DNA of 9,491 nucleotides from a virus (Duplodnaviria > Heunggongvirae > Uroviricota > Caudoviricetes): IMG/VR virus record IMGVR_UViG_2619619129_000006; one strand, given 5' to 3'. The position numbers were made by a program, and so were the translations under genes. Positions 1 to 9,491 of the stretch are shown here, in pieces (positions within the stretch are counted from its first letter, which is position 1; each line of letters opens with the position of its first letter). The notes beneath the pieces were generated by a model. It ran no database searches, had not been told where the DNA came from, and saw nothing but the letters and a program-made list of their open reading frames with translations.

Positions 1-735
<735 letters not shown>

Positions 736-1299: not shown

Positions 1300-2950
1300 C
1301 CAACTTCCGCTTCTTGCTCTTAGCGGACATTAGCATAGGCTATTTACCATAACGCCTCATTACGCGCACCGCCCAGACTGACTCAGCGCGTTTCTGGCAT
1401 ATCCCCGGTAAAACAAGTAACAAACCACCCGAAAATGAACACCAGAAACGCGACTTAAGAATCTACCCTATGAATGGATATGCACTCAACCGAATCGATC
1501 TTGGTTTCAATCTTTTTTATCGGGATCAGGCTTCTTTTTAGGTAACTTCGGGGGCTTAACTTGCTGATGACTTTGCGTTCGGCGCGTAAGCCAGGGATGG
1601 TCAGCTTTAGGTTTAACATAGTATTTTGAGCGTAAATCAATACGGGCATTATCCACTCGTTCATGGACACTCTTTTCATCATCCAGTGGTATAGGCTCCG
1701 GGCCATCAACATACTTTTCCCAGCCCAGCGCTTTCCCGTCATACAGAACGTTAATTTCACCGTCAAAGTTCTCGCATACAGTAACAACCGAATGCCTAAG
1801 TCGATATCCCCGGCCCTCACTGCGTACCTGAAACGCACTGCTTTTGTACTGGAAAGTGAGATTTTTAGACAGAACGCGCTTCGCCTGTAGGCTGAAGATA
1901 TAACCCAGTTCCTCTTCAGAATGGTGCACATCAAGATGAGCATTATCAGTAGTACGAGGCGACGTAGCGAACCGGTTGTTATAGGCTTCAATAAAGGTCG
2001 GCAACCATGCATTTGCTGTTTCAATATCACTGATATTCTGAAGCCGCATTTCTTTGACCAGCCTGTCCTGTAGTGTCTGATTGGCGCGCTCTACCCGCCC
2101 TTTTGCCTGCGGGCTGTTGGCATGGATTGGCTCGATGCCCAGTGTCTTTATCGCACGAGTGAACTGGGTCAGCTCACCTTCCCGCTCTGGGTTATTTACC
2201 CTGAATATACTGTGTCTATCAGAGTAGAGAGCGAGCGGTACGCCATGATCATTAAGGTAACCCCGGAGGGTTTCCATGTAAGCCCGGGTTGTTTCAGCAG
2301 GCACAAAACGCAACGCCATCAACGCACTGGTGGCATCATCAATGAAAACGATCAGTGTACATCTGGGGCCTCGATTTTCAAACCAGTCATGAGGTGAGCC
2401 ATCAATCTGGATCAGTTCACCGTAAGATGGTCGTCGCATGCGGCGTTGATATATACGGGCAATTTTACGACGGCGTTCACGCCATACCCCCCTCTTCTAT
2501 CATCCACTTTCTGAGAGTTTCAACGGATAAAGATAAACCGTGTATCTCGCGCAATTTTTCGCACGCAAACGTAGGTCCAAAATCAGCGTAACGGCCTTTG
2601 AGGAGTGAAATTACTGTTGCTCTGAATTCAGTAGAAAAGGAATTATTAGGACGCTTTCCACGTCGGTGGGAAACCAGACCAGAAGGCCCTTCATTTCTAT
2701 ACCGTTGCACCAGACGTTTAACCTGCCGAATAGAAATGCCAATGCGTGCCGCAGCTTGTTCCTGAGTAATATGTCGATTAATTGACTCCTGAATAATCTG
2801 AAGTCGGTGGAGTTCCTTATGACTCATCGTAACAGTTTCTTTGGTCATGAAAAATCCCCCAGAGAATTGTCTGGGGACATTTTAGAATGGTTCAAAGGGG
2901 ACATTACAGCTTGGTGTTAACAATAGCCTGCTTCTCCTTGCCTTTCGGCA
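1300..2950 (-). mobile_element. Insertion-sequence-like unit around the frameshifted DDE transposase; ends NOT determined
   Basis: A transposase gene flanked by non-coding DNA between flxA and the prophage early genes. I could not identify convincing terminal inverted repeats or a target-site duplication by eye; the coordinates are only a bracket. Confidence 0.35.
1507..2848 (-). pseudogene. IS481/ISNCY-like DDE transposase (N-terminal HTH + integrase-core domain), split by a frameshift in a G6 homopolymer
   Basis: Track ORFs 2477-2848 (123 aa, HTH-like: ...AARIGISIRQVKRLVQRY...) and 1507-2439 (310 aa, integrase core: IQIDGS...VFIDDAT...YSDRHSIF...SPQAKGRVER) are on the same strand in different frames. 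Hand translation shows the second frame is open back to a TAG at 2497-2499, just upstream of the run CCCCCC at 2487-2492 (+ coords). Removing one G would fuse them into one ~446-aa protein (...WMIEEGVWRERRRKIARIYQRRMRRPSYGELIQIDG...). Family assignment is by motif pattern only. Confidence 0.7.
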
Positions 2951-3182
2951 CGTAAGAGGCTAACCTACATGTGTCTGGCATGAAATTGGCCTCAGATTAA
3001 TGTTAAGCGTCTTGCAGGACGCGTAATGTTAACTGGGGCTTTTCTCTACCTGCCGTTGGTGTTCGTGCCCGAGGCAGATAGCCTCAAGCACCCGCAGTCA
3101 TTCTACTTAACTAAGATTTCCCCGCAAACCGTTTTTGTCCAGCACAGTAAATATCCAACTAAACCAATGGAGTTCGCTGTAT

Positions 3183-3362
3183 TTACCGCCAGTATTCAAT
3201 GCACATGACCGCCATGAACACCCCTAAAAAAAGGGCATTTATATATCCAAATATTAATATCAAAACATCAACTTTTTCCATATACCTTGCTGTGAAGATG
3301 ATGGGCATACATGATGCGAACAACCAGAACGCAACAAACAAAAACTGCAATGCGTTTTTCAT
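3183..3362 (-). CDS. Candidate small membrane protein (59 aa, two predicted hydrophobic helices), function unknown
   Basis: ATG at 3362-3360 preceded by GGAGGA (+ coords 3366-3371 as TCCTCC) with a 3-4 nt spacer; translation MKNALQFLFVAFWLFASCMPIIFTARYMEKVDVLILIFGYINALFLGVFMAVMCIEYWR. The track ORF 3183-3401 is the same frame from an upstream GTG. Lies in AT-rich DNA, where hydrophobic ORFs can arise by chance. Confidence 0.35.
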   Translation of the reverse strand: MKNALQFLFVAFWLFASCMPIIFTARYMEKVDVLILIFGYINALFLGVFMAVMCIEYWR

Positions 3363-3616
3363 TATTCCTCCTACAATCAATGTGCAATTACATTTAAACA
3401 CACCTCAATTTGGCCGGACATATAAATATCTAAACCAGAAAAAATCACTTACATAGCGTTACAAACTCTTTAGTCTAAAGGTTCATCGTAAAACATTCCC
3501 CATACTTATCAGTCCGTTCCGCGCCAGGTAGCTCATTGCCTTATCTGGCAACCTGTAATCAGGTTTCCGCTTTTTCAGTTGGCTGGTCGTTTAACCGACA
3601 TAGTTAACCCATTAAT

Positions 3617-3904
3617 CTAGTTGCCGGATGTTGGTGGATTTTCGCGTTTTAGTTGTTCATAAAAGTGCACAGCTTTAACCAATTCTTCTGATGTAACCGG
3701 GACTGGTGAGGCAGTGAATAAGGCCTGAATTTGATAGTTCGGCCTGTCGTTACAATCCTCTTTTTTCGGTACATATTTCCAGTCACCAGACCACTACTTC
3801 CCCTGAAAGTCCGTAACGCCTTTTTTCACGTAGCGATATCGCCATGTCACTGGTTTTGCTTCCCCCGCCGTTTCATGCCCTTCCTGATAATTAATCTCGC
3901 TCAT
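3617..3904 (-). pseudogene. Short nin-like ORF interrupted by an in-frame TAG (36 codons, TAG, 58 further open codons)
   Basis: ATG 3904-3902 overlaps the upstream frame's TGA (ATGA). MSEINYQEGHETAGEAKPVTWRYRYVKKGVTDFQGK, TAG at 3796-3794, then the same frame continues WSGDWKYVPKKEDCNDRPNYQIQALFTASPVPVTSEELVKAVHFYEQLKRENPPTSGN to TAG 3619-3617. Confidence 0.3.
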
Positions 3905-4092
3905 TCATCGCCCCACTCATCACAATATGCTTCGACCGGAGTTTTTCCCGCTTCATAGTCATCACGCTAGGATTCGACATCAGCAGCACTTCCACCGCGT
4001 AACTCACCATAGTCCATTAATAGTTCATCCCGCTCTTCAAAACTGATGTTATATTTAGCTGAACAAAAATCAGCCACTTTGTTCTTCCTCAT
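3901..4092 (-). pseudogene. Short nin-like ORF interrupted by an in-frame TAG (41 codons, TAG, 21 further open codons)
   Basis: ATG 4092-4090: MRKNKVADFCSAKYNISFEERDELLMDYGELRGGSAADVES, TAG at 3969-3967, then the same frame continues RDDYEAGKTPVEAYCDEWGDE to TGA 3903-3901, which overlaps the next ORF's ATG. Confidence 0.3.
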
Positions 4093-4141
4093 CGTCTTTT
4101 ATTTCGTGGTATGAGTAATTGCAGTAGTTAAAGAAAATTTC

Positions 4142-4252
4142 TTATGCTCCGTCATGAATTTCATCAGGTGTTGCGTCATCGTCCACTTCGAATACATCCT
4201 CAAAATCTCCACCAGCTATTCCCGTTTCAATAATAATTTTGAACTTTCGCAT
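4142..4252 (-). CDS. Hypothetical small acidic protein (36 aa)
   Basis: ATG 4252-4250 to TAA 4144-4142: MRKFKIIIETGIAGGDFEDVFEVDDDATPDEIHDGA. An AGGAGG lies 23 nt upstream, separated from the ATG by a GNRA-loop hairpin. Too short to call confidently. Confidence 0.3.
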   Translation of the reverse strand: MRKFKIIIETGIAGGDFEDVFEVDDDATPDEIHDGA

Positions 4253-4514
4253 TTCACTACCGCCCTTTCGGGCGGCCTCCTGATGTTCTGAGGGTGCAGA
4301 AATCCATCCGGTTAAGGATTAAGTTTTATTTACAGAACTGAATTTAATTATTCAGATATACGTATCTGTAACCTTACGAATCTACTCACTGGATGCCTCT
4401 TTCATAAAAATAATCCAGTGGGTTTTATCGTTTTTTCCCTGTTCGTTGACAGATAACAGGCTTTCTATCTGTCAGTGCCAGAATCTGGCTTACCGGTATT
4501 TGCGTTTCATTCCA

Positions 4515-4871
4515 TTAAAAAATCAGAACGCCGTGCGGCCTCAACACCCGAAAAGCTTCTTTAAATCTCTGTCGCAAATCATCACGCCAGGCATCTTTAT
4601 TCAGCCGTCCATATTTCTTTCCCATCCAGGCGTTATCACCAACACGCTCAAGATGCGGAGGGTCTAATACAACCATCGAAAAAGATGCGTCTGCAAATGA
4701 TAATGCACGAAAATCTGCGATAATGTCAGGGCTGATAATCAAGCGTCTCCCATTGCGTAATGTGTATCCTTCTTTTCTGATATCGCTAAATATCGCCCGT
4801 TCGTCAGACTTATCGAACCAGAACATGCGGCTGCCACAGCACACATCAAGAATGGTTGCCGGTGCACTCAC
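4515..4871 (-). CDS. SAM-dependent methyltransferase-like protein (motif I-like DVCCGSR, motif IV-like DPPH), probably C-terminally truncated
   Basis: Track ORF, 118 aa; GTG start 4871-4869 overlaps the upstream gene's TGA (GTGA). After the TAA at 4517-4515 the same frame stays open for 29 more codons (WNETQIPVSQILALTDRKPVICQRTGKKR), suggesting a nonsense mutation. Gene order O-like / ~140 aa / methyltransferase resembles what I recall of yfdO-yfdN-yfdM in K-12 prophage CPS-53 (unverified). Confidence 0.55.
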   Translation of the reverse strand: MSAPATILDVCCGSRMFWFDKSDERAIFSDIRKEGYTLRNGRRLIISPDIIADFRALSFADASFSMVVLDPPHLERVGDNAWMGKKYGRLNKDAWRDDLRQRFKEAFRVLRPHGVLIF

Positions 4872-5290
4872 TGCGCCACGTCCTGAAAATTACCCTGATA
4901 GAAAGCCAGTATGCGCTGCATAACTTCGCTCTTCCGGCACTCGCGACAGATTATGTTTAGGCGACTGTCGTAGCGACGTATTTCTCCGTCAGGTGATGAC
5001 CAGATAAGGTCCGGATCAACCACAGCAGGTTTCTTCACCTTTGCCCTCGAGAGTTTTTTGCGGGCGTTTTGCCAGTCCTTACGCGCCTGTTCAGAGGGGA
5101 ATAACCCGTAGCCGGAGTTGTATACATCGCCACTGGCTACCAGCTCTCTGGCAAGAACGCTCATCAGATATCTAGTCGCACCTGTTTTAGCTTCCAGTTG
5201 CCGTAACGTCTCACGGCCGCTCTGGTGCACGAGTTCCACCACCTGCCATTTAATTTTTTCCCGCTCTTCTTGTGTAAAAACTTTTGCCAC
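4868..5290 (-). CDS. Prophage hypothetical protein (140 aa), possible winged-helix region
   Basis: Track ORF with GTG start 5290-5288; MAKVFTQEEREKIKWQVVELVHQSGRETLRQLEAKTGATRYLMSVLARELVASG...; stop overlaps the next gene's start. Confidence 0.55.
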   Translation of the reverse strand: MAKVFTQEEREKIKWQVVELVHQSGRETLRQLEAKTGATRYLMSVLARELVASGDVYNSGYGLFPSEQARKDWQNARKKLSRAKVKKPAVVDPDLIWSSPDGEIRRYDSRLNIICRECRKSEVMQRILAFYQGNFQDVAQ

Positions 5291-5330
5291 AAGTCCCCCT
5301 TAAAATTACCTCATGACCTGAAATCAACAC

Positions 5331-6296
5331 TTATCCTCTGAAACCAGGCGGAATTTCTGTATCCGGTTCAGAAATATGATTAACACAACGCTGTACAGGT
5401 GAACGTCCCAGGCGGATGACCAGTTCGTCCCATTTTTCGCGGAGCTTTGACGGGCTCATGATGTTTTTTACCCAGAATGGATCTCGCTGAACCCGACCAA
5501 ACATTTCGCAAATTTGTCTGTGGCTTCTGCCATCCAGCATCCGCATTGTGCGCACGTCATTGGCCCAGGCAGTCCAGTTAGGCTCTTTTGGTCGCATGAT
5601 CTCGCCATCATCACTGGCTGCCTGTTCGTAGAGACCCACGATCCGCCCCCAGATCCACTGCGCACACGCCAAATCCTCCCTGCTACCCCACTGGCGTTTT
5701 TTCGCACTAAACACAACCGCGTCGGAGTTCCGGGTTAAAAAATCCTGTTCAGTCGTCTGCGGGTCCGGTTGCGAAGCTTCCGGACGAAAAGTGTTTTTAT
5801 TCTCTGTAGTAATCTCTGTTGTATTCTCTGTAAGATCATCAGGCCATTTTGACCCGATGACATTGGGTCGTTTTGAATCAATGGAGCGTTTCATTTTGAC
5901 CTCTTCCATCGTGTCATTTTGACCTGATGGAGCGGCGCATTTTGAACCGATGGATTCGCTCAATTTGCCACCATCTAAAAGCTCGCTCCCATAGTTGATC
6001 GTGTAGAAATTGGTCATATCGCGCTTTGATTTATTGAGCTTTTCACAACGCAAAAGCCCCAGCGTTTTCAGACTTGCAAACGCGCGCTTTAACGTTGACT
6101 CTGACCAGAATGGGAACTGTTCCAGCCATTGTTCCGTTGTGTTATAAATCCAGCGAACACCATCACATTCCATGCCGGAGTTGGTATCTCTCAACCAGTA
6201 GTGCAGTTGTTGCAAAACAATGGCTTCGTTTAAGCCAATTTTCATTGCCAGCTGCGTGTTTATAACCAGTGGGCGTTCAGCAAAAAGAAGGCTCAT
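5331..6296 (-). CDS. Phage replication initiator, O-like (N-terminal HTH replisome-organiser domain, repeat-containing linker, conserved phage C-terminal domain)
   Basis: Track ORF 5331-6350 begins at a TTG; the first ATG is at 6296-6294 (MSLLFAERPLVINTQLAMKIGLNEAIVLQQLHYWL...), giving 321 aa. The linker-coding DNA carries the iteron array listed below, as in lambda O. Confidence 0.75.
   Translation of the reverse strand: MSLLFAERPLVINTQLAMKIGLNEAIVLQQLHYWLRDTNSGMECDGVRWIYNTTEQWLEQFPFWSESTLKRAFASLKTLGLLRCEKLNKSKRDMTNFYTINYGSELLDGGKLSESIGSKCAAPSGQNDTMEEVKMKRSIDSKRPNVIGSKWPDDLTENTTEITTENKNTFRPEASQPDPQTTEQDFLTRNSDAVVFSAKKRQWGSREDLACAQWIWGRIVGLYEQAASDDGEIMRPKEPNWTAWANDVRTMRMLDGRSHRQICEMFGRVQRDPFWVKNIMSPSKLREKWDELVIRLGRSPVQRCVNHISEPDTEIPPGFRG
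5790..5976. repeat. Putative phage replication origin: six ~23-bp phased iterons plus three tandem 12-13 bp repeats, inside the O-like gene
   Basis: Direct repeats of consensus CATTTTGACCNGATGG starting at 5845, 5869, 5892, 5915, 5938, 5961; adjacent tandem units containing TCTCTGT at 5801-5807, 5814-5820, 5826-5832. Confidence 0.65.
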
Positions 6297-6798
6297 AATT
6301 CCATCCAGCTTTTTGTTGGTATTGCTGTCGATACGCAAGCTTGAAAGCAATTGCTTTTTCTATAAGTTCGTCAGTTTCACGATCCACTACGGCAGGATCA
6401 GCAAAAAGCAGTCCGGACTCCACCACATCGCCATATTCTTTGTTTAACCCGGCGATCATGCACGTGATGCTTTTTCCGTCAGTAATTTCACGATACAACC
6501 TGAAATCACTAATCCGGATAGCCTCCATAATCGCAGGCACTAGCGCCGTGAACTTTTCACGCTTATCCCTGGTGTCGATAGCCTTCCAGCGTTCGAATAT
6601 CTTCACTCGATTAACACCAAGCGCTCGCTGATCAACCGCGCCACCTTCATCTGTGACACGCTGAACATCGATGTTCGGGCGCTCTTTCAAAGCCCAGAAT
6701 GCTTCAGTGATTAATATCGTCGCCTGCTCCTGTGTCATTCCTGGTCGACATATCCAGGCATCCAGAGCCTCACGAGCCTGTTCAGGAGTGATTTTCAT
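6277..6798 (-). CDS. Hypothetical protein at the cII position between the cro-like gene and the O-like gene (173 aa)
   Basis: Track ORF; ATG 6798-6796 preceded by a G-rich SD-like stretch; overlaps dicC by 17 nt and the O-like start by 20 nt. MKITPEQAREALDAWICRPGMTQEQATILITEAFWALKERPNIDVQRV... I suspect it is the intact form of the K-12 ydfX pseudogene but cannot confirm. Confidence 0.55.
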   Translation of the reverse strand: MKITPEQAREALDAWICRPGMTQEQATILITEAFWALKERPNIDVQRVTDEGGAVDQRALGVNRVKIFERWKAIDTRDKREKFTALVPAIMEAIRISDFRLYREITDGKSITCMIAGLNKEYGDVVESGLLFADPAVVDRETDELIEKAIAFKLAYRQQYQQKAGWNYEPSFC

Positions 6799-7009
6799 TG
6801 TTCAACCGCCCCGCCCGCTTCGTCTTACGATATTCATCATAAACTTTGGGATCATACTGAAGCTCCCCGCCAGATGCCTCCTGTAGACGCATCGCGCGAC
6901 CTTCAGGAACCAGTATCCCCCAAGCAGCAACACTTGCCAGCCTCACTCCTGCGGCATTGGCAAGCTTTGTTTTGCTGCCAAAAAAAGTAATTGCGTCAAC
7001 TTTAAGCAT
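6782..7009 (-). CDS. dicC: DicC, Cro-like repressor
   Basis: ATG at 7009-7007 (track ORF starts 3 nt upstream at a TTG); MLKVDAITFFGSKTKLANAAGVRLASVAAWGILVPEGRAMRLQEASGGELQYDPKVYDEYRKTKRAGRLNNENHS; ~76 aa, divergent from dicA, as in the K-12 Qin prophage. Confidence 0.85.
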   Translation of the reverse strand: MLKVDAITFFGSKTKLANAAGVRLASVAAWGILVPEGRAMRLQEASGGELQYDPKVYDEYRKTKRAGRLNNENHS

Positions 7010-7021
7010 CAAATCCCCCTC

Positions 7022-7041
7022 TTGTTAGACTTTTCTAACAT
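7022..7041. promoter_or_regulatory. Palindromic operator TTGTTAGA-cttt-TCTAACAt in the dicC/dicA intergenic region (putative DicA site)
   Basis: 8-bp arms with a 4-bp spacer; nearly identical to the palindrome at 7533-7552; lies just downstream of the predicted dicC promoter -10. Confidence 0.55.
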
Positions 7042-7067
7042 TATTGTGCGCGGGATACCTAAGTCAA
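7040..7067 (-). promoter_or_regulatory. Candidate sigma70 promoter for dicC (-35 TTGACT, 16-bp spacer, -10 AATAAT on the - strand)
   Basis: + strand AGTCAA at 7062-7067 and ATTATT at 7040-7045. Confidence 0.45.
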
Positions 7068-7089
7068 GAAAAATTAGAATTACCTAACT

Positions 7090-7497
7090 ATGGATACAAG
7101 AACCCTGGGCCAGCGAGTTCTGGCGCGACGAAAAGAATTACGCTTAACACAACGAGAAGCCGCGCGCCTCGCTGGAGTTGCTCACGTCACAATTTCACAA
7201 TGGGAAAGAGACGAAACCCAGCCAGTCGGAAAACGATTGTTTGCTTTAGCGGATGCTCTGAAGTGCTCACCTACATGGCTAATGTTTGGTGACGAAGACA
7301 AGGCACCAGTGCCTGCACAAGAACTTCATGTGGAAACAGAGCTAACTCCCAACCACAAAGAATTGATCGAATTATTCGATGCTCTTCCATCTTCCGAGCA
7401 GGAAGCCTTGCTGTCTGAAATGCGCGCAAGAGTAGAAAACTTCAACAAACTCTTCGAAGAAATGCTTAAAGCGCGTAAAAATAAATCAATAAAATAA
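7090..7497 (+). CDS. dicA: DicA, cI-like HTH repressor of the dicB operon (135 aa)
   Basis: Track ORF; MDTRTLGQRVLARRKELRLTQREAARLAGVAHVTISQWERDETQPVGKRLFALADALKCSPTWLMFGDEDK...; HTH_XRE-type N-terminus; length and context match DicA. Confidence 0.9.
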   Translation: MDTRTLGQRVLARRKELRLTQREAARLAGVAHVTISQWERDETQPVGKRLFALADALKCSPTWLMFGDEDKAPVPAQELHVETELTPNHKELIELFDALPSSEQEALLSEMRARVENFNKLFEEMLKARKNKSIK

Positions 7498-7532
7498 CAT
7501 TCTTTTCAAGTGATTAGTTGCGCCCACCCTTT

Positions 7533-7552
7533 TTGTTAGATCAATCTAACAA
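7533..7552. promoter_or_regulatory. Perfect palindromic operator TTGTTAGA-tcaa-TCTAACAA upstream of the ydfA-dicB operon promoter (putative DicA site)
   Basis: 8/8 complementary arms with a 4-bp spacer; same half-site as 7022-7041. Confidence 0.55.
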
Positions 7553-7559
7553 AAAACAC

Positions 7560-7588
7560 TTGCCTCTCATGTTAGGTTATTCTAAATT
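7560..7588 (+). promoter_or_regulatory. Candidate sigma70 promoter for the ydfABC-dicF-dicB operon (-35 TTGCCT, 17-bp spacer, -10 TAAATT)
   Basis: TTGCCT at 7560-7565 and TAAATT at 7583-7588; a weaker TGTTAG...CTAAAT element overlaps the spacer and -10. Confidence 0.4.
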
Positions 7589-7665
7589 ATTTTCCATCAA
7601 GACACCGCACGGTGTTCTCAGCAAACAGTTCCGCTACCCCGGCGTTAAGGGGAAATGAGGTCAGC

Positions 7666-7821
7666 ATGGATACTATCGATCTTGGCAACAACGAATCTCT
7701 GGTGTACGGCGTGTTTCCAAACCAGGACGGCACGTTCACCGCAATGACGTATACCAAAAGCAAAACGTTTAAAACCGAATCTGGAGCGCGTCGCTGGCTG
7801 GAAAGAAATTCAGGTGGGTGA
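7666..7821 (+). CDS. ydfA: YdfA (51 aa, unknown function)
   Basis: ATG 7666 preceded by GAGG at 7656-7659; MDTIDLGNNESLVYGVFPNQDGTFTAMTYTKSKTFKTESGARRWLERNSGG; TGA at 7819-7821. The track ORF 7612-7821 is the same frame from an upstream start. Confidence 0.8.
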   Translation: MDTIDLGNNESLVYGVFPNQDGTFTAMTYTKSKTFKTESGARRWLERNSGG

Positions 7822-7822
7822 T

Positions 7823-7951
7823 ATGGATTTCGACACAATCATGGAAAAGGCTTACGAAGAATACTTCGAAGGCCTTGCCGAAGGCGAAGAAGCTCTCAGC
7901 TTCAGCGAATTTAAACAGGCGCTTTCCAGTTCGGCAAAATCTAACGGCTGA
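7823..7951 (+). CDS. ydfB: YdfB (42 aa, unknown function)
   Basis: ATG 7823 preceded by GGTGGG; MDFDTIMEKAYEEYFEGLAEGEEALSFSEFKQALSSSAKSNG; TGA 7949-7951. Below the ORF-track length cut-off. Confidence 0.7.
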   Translation: MDFDTIMEKAYEEYFEGLAEGEEALSFSEFKQALSSSAKSNG

Positions 7952-7980
7952 TAAGCGAAACAGCACCGCAAGGAATCAGT

Positions 7981-8199
7981 ATGCAGAAACGAGAACCCGT
8001 TATCATCGCGCCAGACTATACCGATGATGAACTTTATGAGTGGATGCACCAGAAAATTAATGCAGCGCAGGATCTGAAATGGGCTAATGAAGCCAGGGCT
8101 AAGCAGGCTGAAAATCTGTTCTCTCTGGAGCAGGATATCACCAATCTGGAAAAAGCAGCGGCATTAAGCATTGCCAGAATGATTACATACCCGCGTTAA
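7981..8199 (+). CDS. ydfC: YdfC (72 aa, unknown function)
   Basis: Track ORF; AAGGA 7 nt upstream; MQKREPVIIAPDYTDDELYEWMHQKINAAQDLKWANEARAKQAENLFSLEQDITNLEKAAALSIARMITYPR. Confidence 0.8.
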   Translation: MQKREPVIIAPDYTDDELYEWMHQKINAAQDLKWANEARAKQAENLFSLEQDITNLEKAAALSIARMITYPR

Positions 8200-8376
8200 T
8201 AGCTAACCAACGAAGCTAAGGTTGGTAATTAAGGAGTTCTCCACGGTTGTGGCAACCCGCGAAATGGCGCGGCGGTAAGTATGGCGGGGTTATTCCTTCC
8301 CCGTTGAGGACACCGGGTTGTCAGGTTGACCATACGCTTAAGTGACAACCCCGCTGCAACGCCCTCTGTTATCAAT

Positions 8377-8434
8377 TTTCTGGTGACGTTTGGCGGTATC
8401 AGTTTTACTCCGTGACTGCTCTGCCGCCCTTTTT
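8377..8434 (+). ncRNA. dicF: DicF small RNA (antisense regulator of ftsZ), including 3' U-tract
   Basis: TTTCTGGTGACGTTTGGCGGTATCAGTTTTACTCCGTGACTGCTCTGCCGCCC followed by TTTTT matches my memory of the 53-nt DicF sequence; position between ydfC and dicB matches K-12. Confidence 0.85.
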
Positions 8435-8603
8435 AAAGTGAATTTTGTGATGTGGTGAATGCGGCTGAGCGCACGCGGAACAGTTAAAACCAAAAACAGT
8501 GTTATGGGTGGATTCTCTGTATCCGGCGTTAATTGTTAACTGGTTAACGTCACCTGGAGGCACCAGGCACCGCATCACAAAACTCATTGTTGAGGGCGCG
8601 ATA

Positions 8604-8792
8604 ATGAAAACGTTATTACCAAACGTTAATACGTCTGAAGGTTGTTTTGAAATTGGTGTCACTATCAGTAACCCTGTATTTACTGAAGATGCCATTAACA
8701 AGAGAAAACAAGAACGGGAGCTATTAAATAAAATATGCATTGTTTCAATGCTGGCTCGTTTACGTCTGATGCCAAAAGGATGTGCACAATGA
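8604..8792 (+). CDS. dicB: DicB, cell-division inhibitor (62 aa)
   Basis: ATG 8604 preceded by GAGGG; MKTLLPNVNTSEGCFEIGVTISNPVFTEDAINKRKQERELLNKICIVSMLARLRLMPKGCAQ. The track ORF 8499-8792 is the same frame from an upstream start. Confidence 0.9.
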   Translation: MKTLLPNVNTSEGCFEIGVTISNPVFTEDAINKRKQERELLNKICIVSMLARLRLMPKGCAQ

Positions 8793-8980
8793 ATTCAGCA
8801 TTTGCGCTTGTTCTGACAGTTTTTCTTGTTTCCGGAGTGCCAGTTGATATTGCAGTCAGTGTTCACAGGACAATGCAGGAGTGTATGACTGCAGCAACCG
8901 AACAGAAAATTCCCGGTAACTGTTACCCGGTCGATAAAGTTATTCACCAGGATAATATCGAAATCCCGGCAGGTCTTTAA
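8789..8980 (+). CDS. ydfD: YdfD (63 aa; reported as a lytic protein in K-12)
   Basis: ATG 8789-8791 overlaps the dicB stop 8790-8792 (ATGA); MNSAFALVLTVFLVSGVPVDIAVSVHRTMQECMTAATEQKIPGNCYPVDKVIHQDNIEIPAGL with an N-terminal hydrophobic helix. Confidence 0.85.
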   Translation: MNSAFALVLTVFLVSGVPVDIAVSVHRTMQECMTAATEQKIPGNCYPVDKVIHQDNIEIPAGL

Positions 8981-9073
8981 AACAGTTCCGTAATAAATAT
9001 CCGGTTTCATTCTTATATGCCAGCAATGGCAGGGATTTGTTCATCCTTAAATCTGTCATGAGGTTAAAACAAA

Positions 9074-9491
9074 ATGAGTAAAGTCTTTATTTGCGCCGCT
9101 ATTCCTGACGAACTGGCAACAAGGGAAGAAGGCGCTGTGGCTGTAGCCACAGCCATTGAAGCTGGCGACGAACGCCGTGCTCGAGCAAAATTTCACTGGC
9201 AATTCCTGGAACATTATCCGGCTGCTCAGGACTGCGCTTATAAATTTATTGTCTGCGAGGATAAACCTGGTATACCCCGCCCTGCCCTCGATTCATGGGA
9301 TGCTGAATATATGCAGGAAAACCGCTGGGATGAGGATTCTGCTTCTTTTGTCCCGGTTGAGACTGAATCCGATCTGATGAACGTCACTTTTGACAAGCTG
9401 GCCCCTGAAGTACAGAACGCTGTCATGGTTAAGTTCGACACATGTGAAAACATCACCGTTGATATGGTTATTAGCGCACAGGAATTGTTGC
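9074..9491 (+). CDS. ydfE: YdfE-like protein, N-terminal 139 codons; 3' end outside window
   Basis: ATG 9074 preceded by GAGG; MSKVFICAAIPDELATREEGAVAVATAIEAGDERRARAKFHWQFLEHYPAAQDCAYKFIVCEDKPG... open to the window end. Track ORFs 9156-9377 and 9238-9456 are in other frames. Confidence 0.7.
   Translation, partial: MSKVFICAAIPDELATREEGAVAVATAIEAGDERRARAKFHWQFLEHYPAAQDCAYKFIVCEDKPGIPRPALDSWDAEYMQENRWDEDSASFVPVETESDLMNVTFDKLAPEVQNAVMVKFDTCENITVDMVISAQELL

Follow-up and report, generated by a model that had tools for sequence, protein, structure and literature searches.

A genuine DicF gene in a Qin-type prophage whose operon copy lacks the predicted upstream RNase III hairpin

Taken as a whole, the locus described here is best explained by a genuine DicF gene of the dicBF operon in an operon copy that has lost the upstream RNase III hairpin, an explanation that we consider very probably correct. 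The DNA concerned, hereafter called the window, is the whole stretch of 9491 bp that was analysed; it is a fragment of an IMG/VR record and is 99.9% identical to Qin-type prophage DNA present in many E. coli chromosomes. DicF was among the first bacterial sRNAs to be described. It is a known element, and finding it in a Qin-type prophage is ordinary and a matter of routine annotation; the value of the locus lies in the variant, that is, in a natural processing mutant lacking the upstream hairpin, and not in a new kind of system. Such a mutant is of some use for learning if the production of the active 53-nt DicF and the stability of the ydfABC message require the RNase III cut or are modulated by it, in a field where the literature is inconsistent on what RNase III and RNase E each contribute to the maturation of DicF.

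Identity and fold of DicF

The first-pass annotation of the window had placed a 53-nt DicF together with its U-tract at 8377-8434, and had let this assignment stand or fall with a covariance-model scan. The scan, which was run on the full window against Rfam 15 at gathering thresholds, returned two matches above threshold in the 9491 bp, DicF among them: the DicF model (RF00039) is matched at 8378-8429 (+) over positions 1-52 of its 52, with a score of 76.7 bits (E 5.4e-16) against a gathering score of 48, and the region thereby passed. In addition, alignment of 8377-8434 with the annotated K-12 dicF (b1574) extended by five Ts gives 58 identical bases out of 58, the annotated K-12 start corresponding to 8377, one base before the start of the Rfam match at 8378. 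The limits given at first sight are hence borne out on both sides, as the first base is the K-12 5' end and the last one is the end of the U-tract. The mature sRNA of 53 nt occupies 8377-8429 (+) and is followed at 8430-8434 (+) by the U-tract of what both sequence and fold indicate to be a Rho-independent terminator, setting the 3' end of the 53-nt form.

When folded alone, DicF displays an unpaired 5' part of 15 nt, followed by a terminator hairpin of 12 pairs and by the U5 (-15.9 kcal/mol, z -2.3), and it fully satisfies the structure line of the RF00039 alignment. The DicF terminator went unreported in a simple terminator scan of 7400-9100; since its loop and bulges exceed the limits of the scanner, the miss is ascribed to the tool and does not count against the terminator. 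As far as sequence can tell, it is practically certain that 8377-8429 is a genuine dicF gene, belonging to a defective lambdoid prophage of the Qin type from E. coli, and that 8430-8434 is its U-tract. The identity with the K-12 sRNA takes in the regions pairing with the ftsZ, manX, xylR, and pykA mRNAs. In K-12, DicF acts against the ftsZ mRNA, DicB acts via MinC, and YdfD is involved in lysis (PMC10448788, PMC5069750). By virtue of sequence identity, the functions of DicF, DicB, and YdfD, including Hfq binding and ftsZ repression in the case of the sRNA, would carry over from K-12 to the window.

Operon context and neighboring genes

The proposed location of dicF between ydfC (7981-8199) and dicB (8604-8792), inside the DicA-controlled operon, agrees with both the translations and the annotation, which also give the same-strand order of a dicA/dicC immunity-like locus, ydfABC, dicF, and dicB. 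A dicA-type repressor gene is found at 7090-7497 (+; Pfam HTH_3, 1.5e-14), and its product shares 75 of 132 residues with K-12 DicA in a BLASTP comparison. This low identity of 57% contrasts with the near identity to K-12 of the operon that the repressor controls, which points to another immunity variant, a putative different immunity specificity being set before the same cargo. The dicBF operon promoter, controlled by this dicA-type repressor, is placed between 7497 and 7666. It is followed by ydfA (7666-7821, +; YdfA 49/51 identical to K-12), ydfB (7823-7951, +; YdfB identical), and ydfC (on the plus strand as well; YdfC 69/72 identical), three genes lying ahead of dicF on the polycistronic dicBF transcript that is cut to release DicF. 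Beyond dicF come dicB (+), coding for a DicB of 62 aa identical to that of K-12, and ydfD (8789-8980, +), coding for a full-length lysis protein of 63 aa with 61 residues identical to K-12, the ydfD start codon overlapping the dicB stop codon (ATGA). An exonuclease gene starts at 9074 and runs onward (+), according to the annotation of a 99.9% identical record.

On the opposite strand (-) lie dicC, a ydaT-family gene, an O-like initiator gene, and a DUF977 gene, and, downstream of the replication genes at about 3483-4826 (-), a hypothetical gene, a DUF7167 gene, and a SAM-methyltransferase gene. In the 99.9% identical strain MS15047, the annotation lists the last three as pseudogenes broken by frameshifts or stop codons, in agreement with the initial view that the genes around the module are decaying; the name nin-like given to them at first describes their position. 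The companion view, according to which the dicF-dicB-ydfD module is kept intact, holds for its mature products, DicF and DicB being identical to their K-12 counterparts and YdfD nearly so, but not for the DicF precursor, which is hit by a 163-bp deletion upstream of the sRNA that the first-pass annotation did not mention.

Elsewhere in the window, a strong match to the sok/hok leader (RF01794) is found at 2922-3093 (-) with 99.8 bits; in place of the AUG that closes the model, the window has AUU, beyond which the sequence passes into a helix-turn-helix gene related to IS elements (2477-2848, -). Judged from these features, the hok toxin gene appears to be lost and the hok/sok locus broken. An IS5-family transposase gene (DUF772 and DDE_Tnp_1) is present at 2-703 (-), where it is cut by the window end.

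The 163-bp deletion and the processing sites of the DicF precursor

When aligned with the K-12 locus (L002), the ydfC-dicF interval of the window turns out to be 163 bp shorter, the missing bases corresponding to L002 9090-9252, and the top E. coli genome matches of the window come in two pieces each, spanning 163 bases more than the query. The deletion junction lies at 8246/8247 on the plus strand (8244-8249), its position being able to shift by 3 bases owing to a 3-bp CGG microhomology; it sits 130 nt upstream of dicF and leaves 47 nt after the ydfC stop codon. The retained spacer of 130 nt (8247-8376, +) represents the body of the 190-nt precursor, is identical to K-12, and has the AU-rich RNase E cleavage site (…UAUCAAU/UUUCUGG) at its 3' end. 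More broadly, there is no mismatch to K-12 over 8244-8570, a stretch that takes in the 130-nt spacer, dicF itself, and the 141 nt following it. In an Rfam E-value scan of the K-12 spacer, the deleted 163 bp matched none of the known RNA families. Both the MFE and the centroid folds of this K-12 spacer contain a hairpin of 22 pairs at L002 about 9173-9259 (-35.6 kcal/mol, z -2.7). Of this hairpin, the deletion leaves nothing but the last six to nine bases of the 3' arm, the 5' arm and the loop being lost entirely, so that the upstream duplex cannot form in the window allele.

DicF has no promoter of its own and is cut from the dicBp transcript, as reported by Ragunathan et al. in 2023 (PMC10448788). 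According to this work, the 5' end of a 190-nt DicF species is made by RNase III, and the 53-nt species needs RNase E. An RNA of 190 nt ending at the DicF 3' end would begin about 137 nt before the DicF +1, at L002 about 9246, that is, in the middle of the 3' arm of the hairpin, which is the only long duplex in the predicted fold of the region. The sequence given in Fig. S1 of the same paper begins in the hairpin loop, the letter marking the cut not being recoverable. The RNase III cut is placed in the hairpin on account of the published length of 190 nt and of the predicted fold, and not of a mapped base; on these grounds, the deleted hairpin is likely to be the RNase III site that generates the 190-nt 5' end. 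This upstream hairpin, expected about 137-210 nt before dicF, is missing from the operon copy of the window. Its loss is without effect on the membership of DicF in its RNA family and marks the operon copy as a processing variant.

On the downstream side, folding predicts a long-range stem of about 20 bp between 8437-8458 and 8565-8587 (8437-8587, +; z -3.87), which encloses the dicF-dicB spacer and whose 5' arm contains the published 3' end of the 72-nt DicF at about 8448. This stem is the predicted RNase III substrate for the 72-nt end and is retained in the window. The window keeps both this stem for the 72-nt form and the K-12-identical flank bearing the RNase E site, cleavage itself being predicted. 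The role ascribed to RNase III at dicF differs between publications, namely the 190-nt 5' end in one case (PMC10448788) and the 72-nt 3' end in the other, the latter being attributed to RNase III with reference to Faubladier 1990 (PMC5069750, PMC9438474). Both events may be real, a suitable duplex being predicted at each place. With two RNase III events given by the literature, the window allele has, on the predicted folds, lost only the upstream one. The downstream region also yields a sub-threshold match to STnc100 (RF02076) at 8441-8581 (+), with 38.4 bits against a threshold of 47 and an E-value of 6.5e-7, K-12 scoring 34.1 bits.

Conservation of the hairpin

Unbroken homology to K-12, starting at least 10 nt ahead of the hairpin and reaching through dicF, is observed in all 120 other IMG/VR dicF loci, chosen by the presence of the exact 37-nt DicF core, the window being the single exception as regards the hairpin. 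In 32 of these 120 loci, the homology to K-12 begins just 10-18 nt before the hairpin. Breaks at K-12 spacer positions 21, 43, and 61 are seen in other IMG/VR loci. As judged from these alignments, the ydfC-dicF spacer is a mosaic, whose apparent recombination boundaries stop just short of the hairpin. Complete E. coli records behave similarly, since the hairpin and dicF are kept over at least 80% of the query in 4006 of the 4349 with a match. Besides, the hairpin-dicF unit is found in 43 phage records, including the phages Tritos and mEp460 as well as Stx2-converting phages, and each full-coverage phage match spans 404 bp for a query of 241 bp and so holds the 163 bp. A paper of 2016 found no DicF in about 2000 phage genomes (PMC5069750); given the cassette in these 43 deposited phage genomes, DicF is not confined to defective prophages.

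Regarding the structure itself, RNAalifold keeps 20 pairs over 32 distinct hairpin variants, the arms being conserved and the loop of about 38 nt being variable. None of the 20 pairs displays a compensatory double change among these 32 variants, where only one-sided, G-U compatible changes occur, so that the alignment supports the hairpin structure without proving it. The conservation of the hairpin could arise from sequence constraint alone.

Reality of the deletion and alternative explanations

One public run, X1, whose contigs total 4.88 Mb, has the deletion junction. In X1, a 70-nt unitig obtained with 31-mers spans the junction with a depth of 186, and a 233-nt unitig carries the undeleted path at a depth of 205, the flanks of the module being at 380-396 and the host core genes rspB-speG at 198.6 on a contig of 36.6 kb. 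The depths of the deleted and undeleted paths thus sum to the flank depth and each approximates the single-copy depth of the host, which is indicative of one strain with two module copies: X1 is one strain in which the module extending from ydfA to the exonuclease gene is present twice, once deleted and once intact. The unique part of the window (1880-7657) is recovered at a depth of 194-222 with one difference, and between the X1 contigs and the window there are 12 single-base differences and one inserted base, all within 7896-9422. As the module (7609-9491) stands at about twice the single-copy depth of the host and shows these differences, the strain has two slightly different dicBF modules. 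The X1 contigs do not phase the deletion to the Qin context of the window versus the second module copy. Two other readings of this run were considered and rejected: a mixture of two strains, in view of the host core genes at 198.6 on the 36.6-kb contig, which is the depth of each allele, and a mixed population in which the 163 bp would be excised, against which the same depth figures argue. The IS5-family transposase gene reaches a depth of about 4658 in X1, which implies roughly 23 copies in the genome.

The junction is present in the reads as such, and the deletion is thus a feature of real DNA. The idea that the 163-bp gap would be an artefact of the IMG/VR assembly, for instance through the collapse of two near-identical module copies, is accordingly highly improbable. 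It can draw on the fact that a two-copy repeat region makes misassembly more likely, and on the detection of the junction in one run alone, which may be the source data of the window and hence not independent support, but it does not account for a junction unitig at a depth close to that of single-copy host genes nor for two alleles adding up to their flanks. Searches in 5426 complete E. coli genomes (44-mer, without Shigella), IMG/VR, JGI metagenome contigs, and GTDB representatives, which may not cover close relatives of the genome from which the window derives, did not return the junction, and no RNA run with the junction was found. Another explanation accepts the deletion but holds that a mere spacer was lost, either because the deleted hairpin is not an RNase III site or because RNase III acts only at the 72-nt site. 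The two papers citing Faubladier 1990 indeed give an RNase III-made 3' end for the 72-nt form and no such 5' end, and the lack of compensatory covariation in the hairpin, together with an exact cleavage base that is not recoverable, goes in the same direction. However, by its published length, the 190-nt species begins within the 3' arm of the hairpin, the sole long duplex of the region, and the arms of this duplex are conserved while its loop varies, so that the loss of a mere spacer appears unlikely.

The deletion may also correspond to neutral decay of a redundant, silent copy, switched off under the DicA variant, with the identity of DicF left unchanged, a reading to which we give slightly less than an even chance. 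Under this reading, the loss of the hairpin would be without phenotypic effect and would call for no functional explanation, and the sole point of departure from the preferred explanation is whether the deletion matters. Neutral loss in a redundant copy is the simplest evolutionary reading, the variant being private and probably neutral. In line with it, the X1 genome carries two modules, one deleted and one intact; the allele is confined to this genome as far as the above collections are concerned; the neighboring prophage genes are already decaying; and the 3-bp microhomology at the junction is typical of spontaneous deletion. Against it, the hairpin lost here is kept at the other loci examined, and dicF, the RNase E site, and dicB have been spared. 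This sparing pattern fits chance, and it also fits a tolerance only for those changes that leave the mature products intact.

Proposed processing in the window allele

The preferred explanation, a genuine DicF in an operon copy deprived of its upstream RNase III hairpin, leads to the following scheme. By identity with the K-12 operon and on the basis of what is known in K-12, transcription would start ahead of ydfA, at the promoter repressed by DicA. RNase E, cutting at the AU-rich site just before 8377, would generate the 5' end of the 53-nt DicF, and its 3' end would be set by the terminator hairpin and the U5; on transcripts reading through into dicB-ydfD, an RNase III cut in the 8437-8458/8565-8587 stem would be expected to provide a 3' end. 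In an Hfq-dependent manner, DicF would then pair with the ftsZ, manX, xylR, and pykA mRNAs and block their translation, and DicB (via MinC) and YdfD, produced from the same transcript, would act on cell division and on the envelope. In the window allele, no 190-nt species is predicted. We lean towards the view that the 53-nt DicF would still be made through RNase E and the terminator, at a useful or comparable level. Besides, the ydfABC segment of the transcript may be altered in its stability, because ydfA transcripts were undetected in an rnc mutant (PMC10448788).

A more speculative view, which we regard as rather doubtful, is that the portable conserved unit is a cassette of about 270 nt, made of the RNase III hairpin at its 5' edge, the structured spacer of 130 nt, and dicF with its terminator, a cassette whose RNase III entry site would be naturally knocked out in the window. 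If the RNase III cut licenses or limits the RNase E step, the yield or the timing of DicF would differ in the window allele. In case this view is right, the deletion could be a selected attenuation of one of the two toxic copies in the strain, and the allele would separate the two processing pathways without any mutation in a global RNase.

Comparison with known systems

The closest known system is the Qin dicF of K-12 MG1655 (b1574), to which the window is identical in the 53-nt sRNA with its U-tract, in the 130 nt that precede it, and in DicB; the genes also follow each other in the same order, ydfA-ydfB-ydfC-dicF-dicB-ydfD. Unlike the K-12 locus, the window is devoid of 163 bp of the ydfC-dicF spacer, including the upstream hairpin, and its DicA repressor reaches an identity of only 57%. 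The prophage in the window is also less deleted than that of K-12: the replication genes are kept, and the exonuclease gene has an intact start at 9074, ydfE of K-12 being a pseudogene. The prophages of O157:H7, the Stx2-converting phages, Tritos, and mEp460 have in common a unit of about 270 nt ending in dicF and its terminator. The dicF cassettes of these other lambdoid prophages and phages all bear the hairpin at the 5' edge of the unit, in contrast to the window.

Outside this group, SroC, CpxQ, and SdhX are sRNAs cut by RNase E from operon mRNAs or 3' UTRs (PMC9438474). Like DicF, they have a 3' end provided by a terminator and a 5' end provided by RNase E, and they do not have a promoter of their own. 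DicF normally undergoes extra RNase III processing on both sides, and the window allele would therefore resemble the RNase E-only sRNAs more closely than its K-12 counterpart does.
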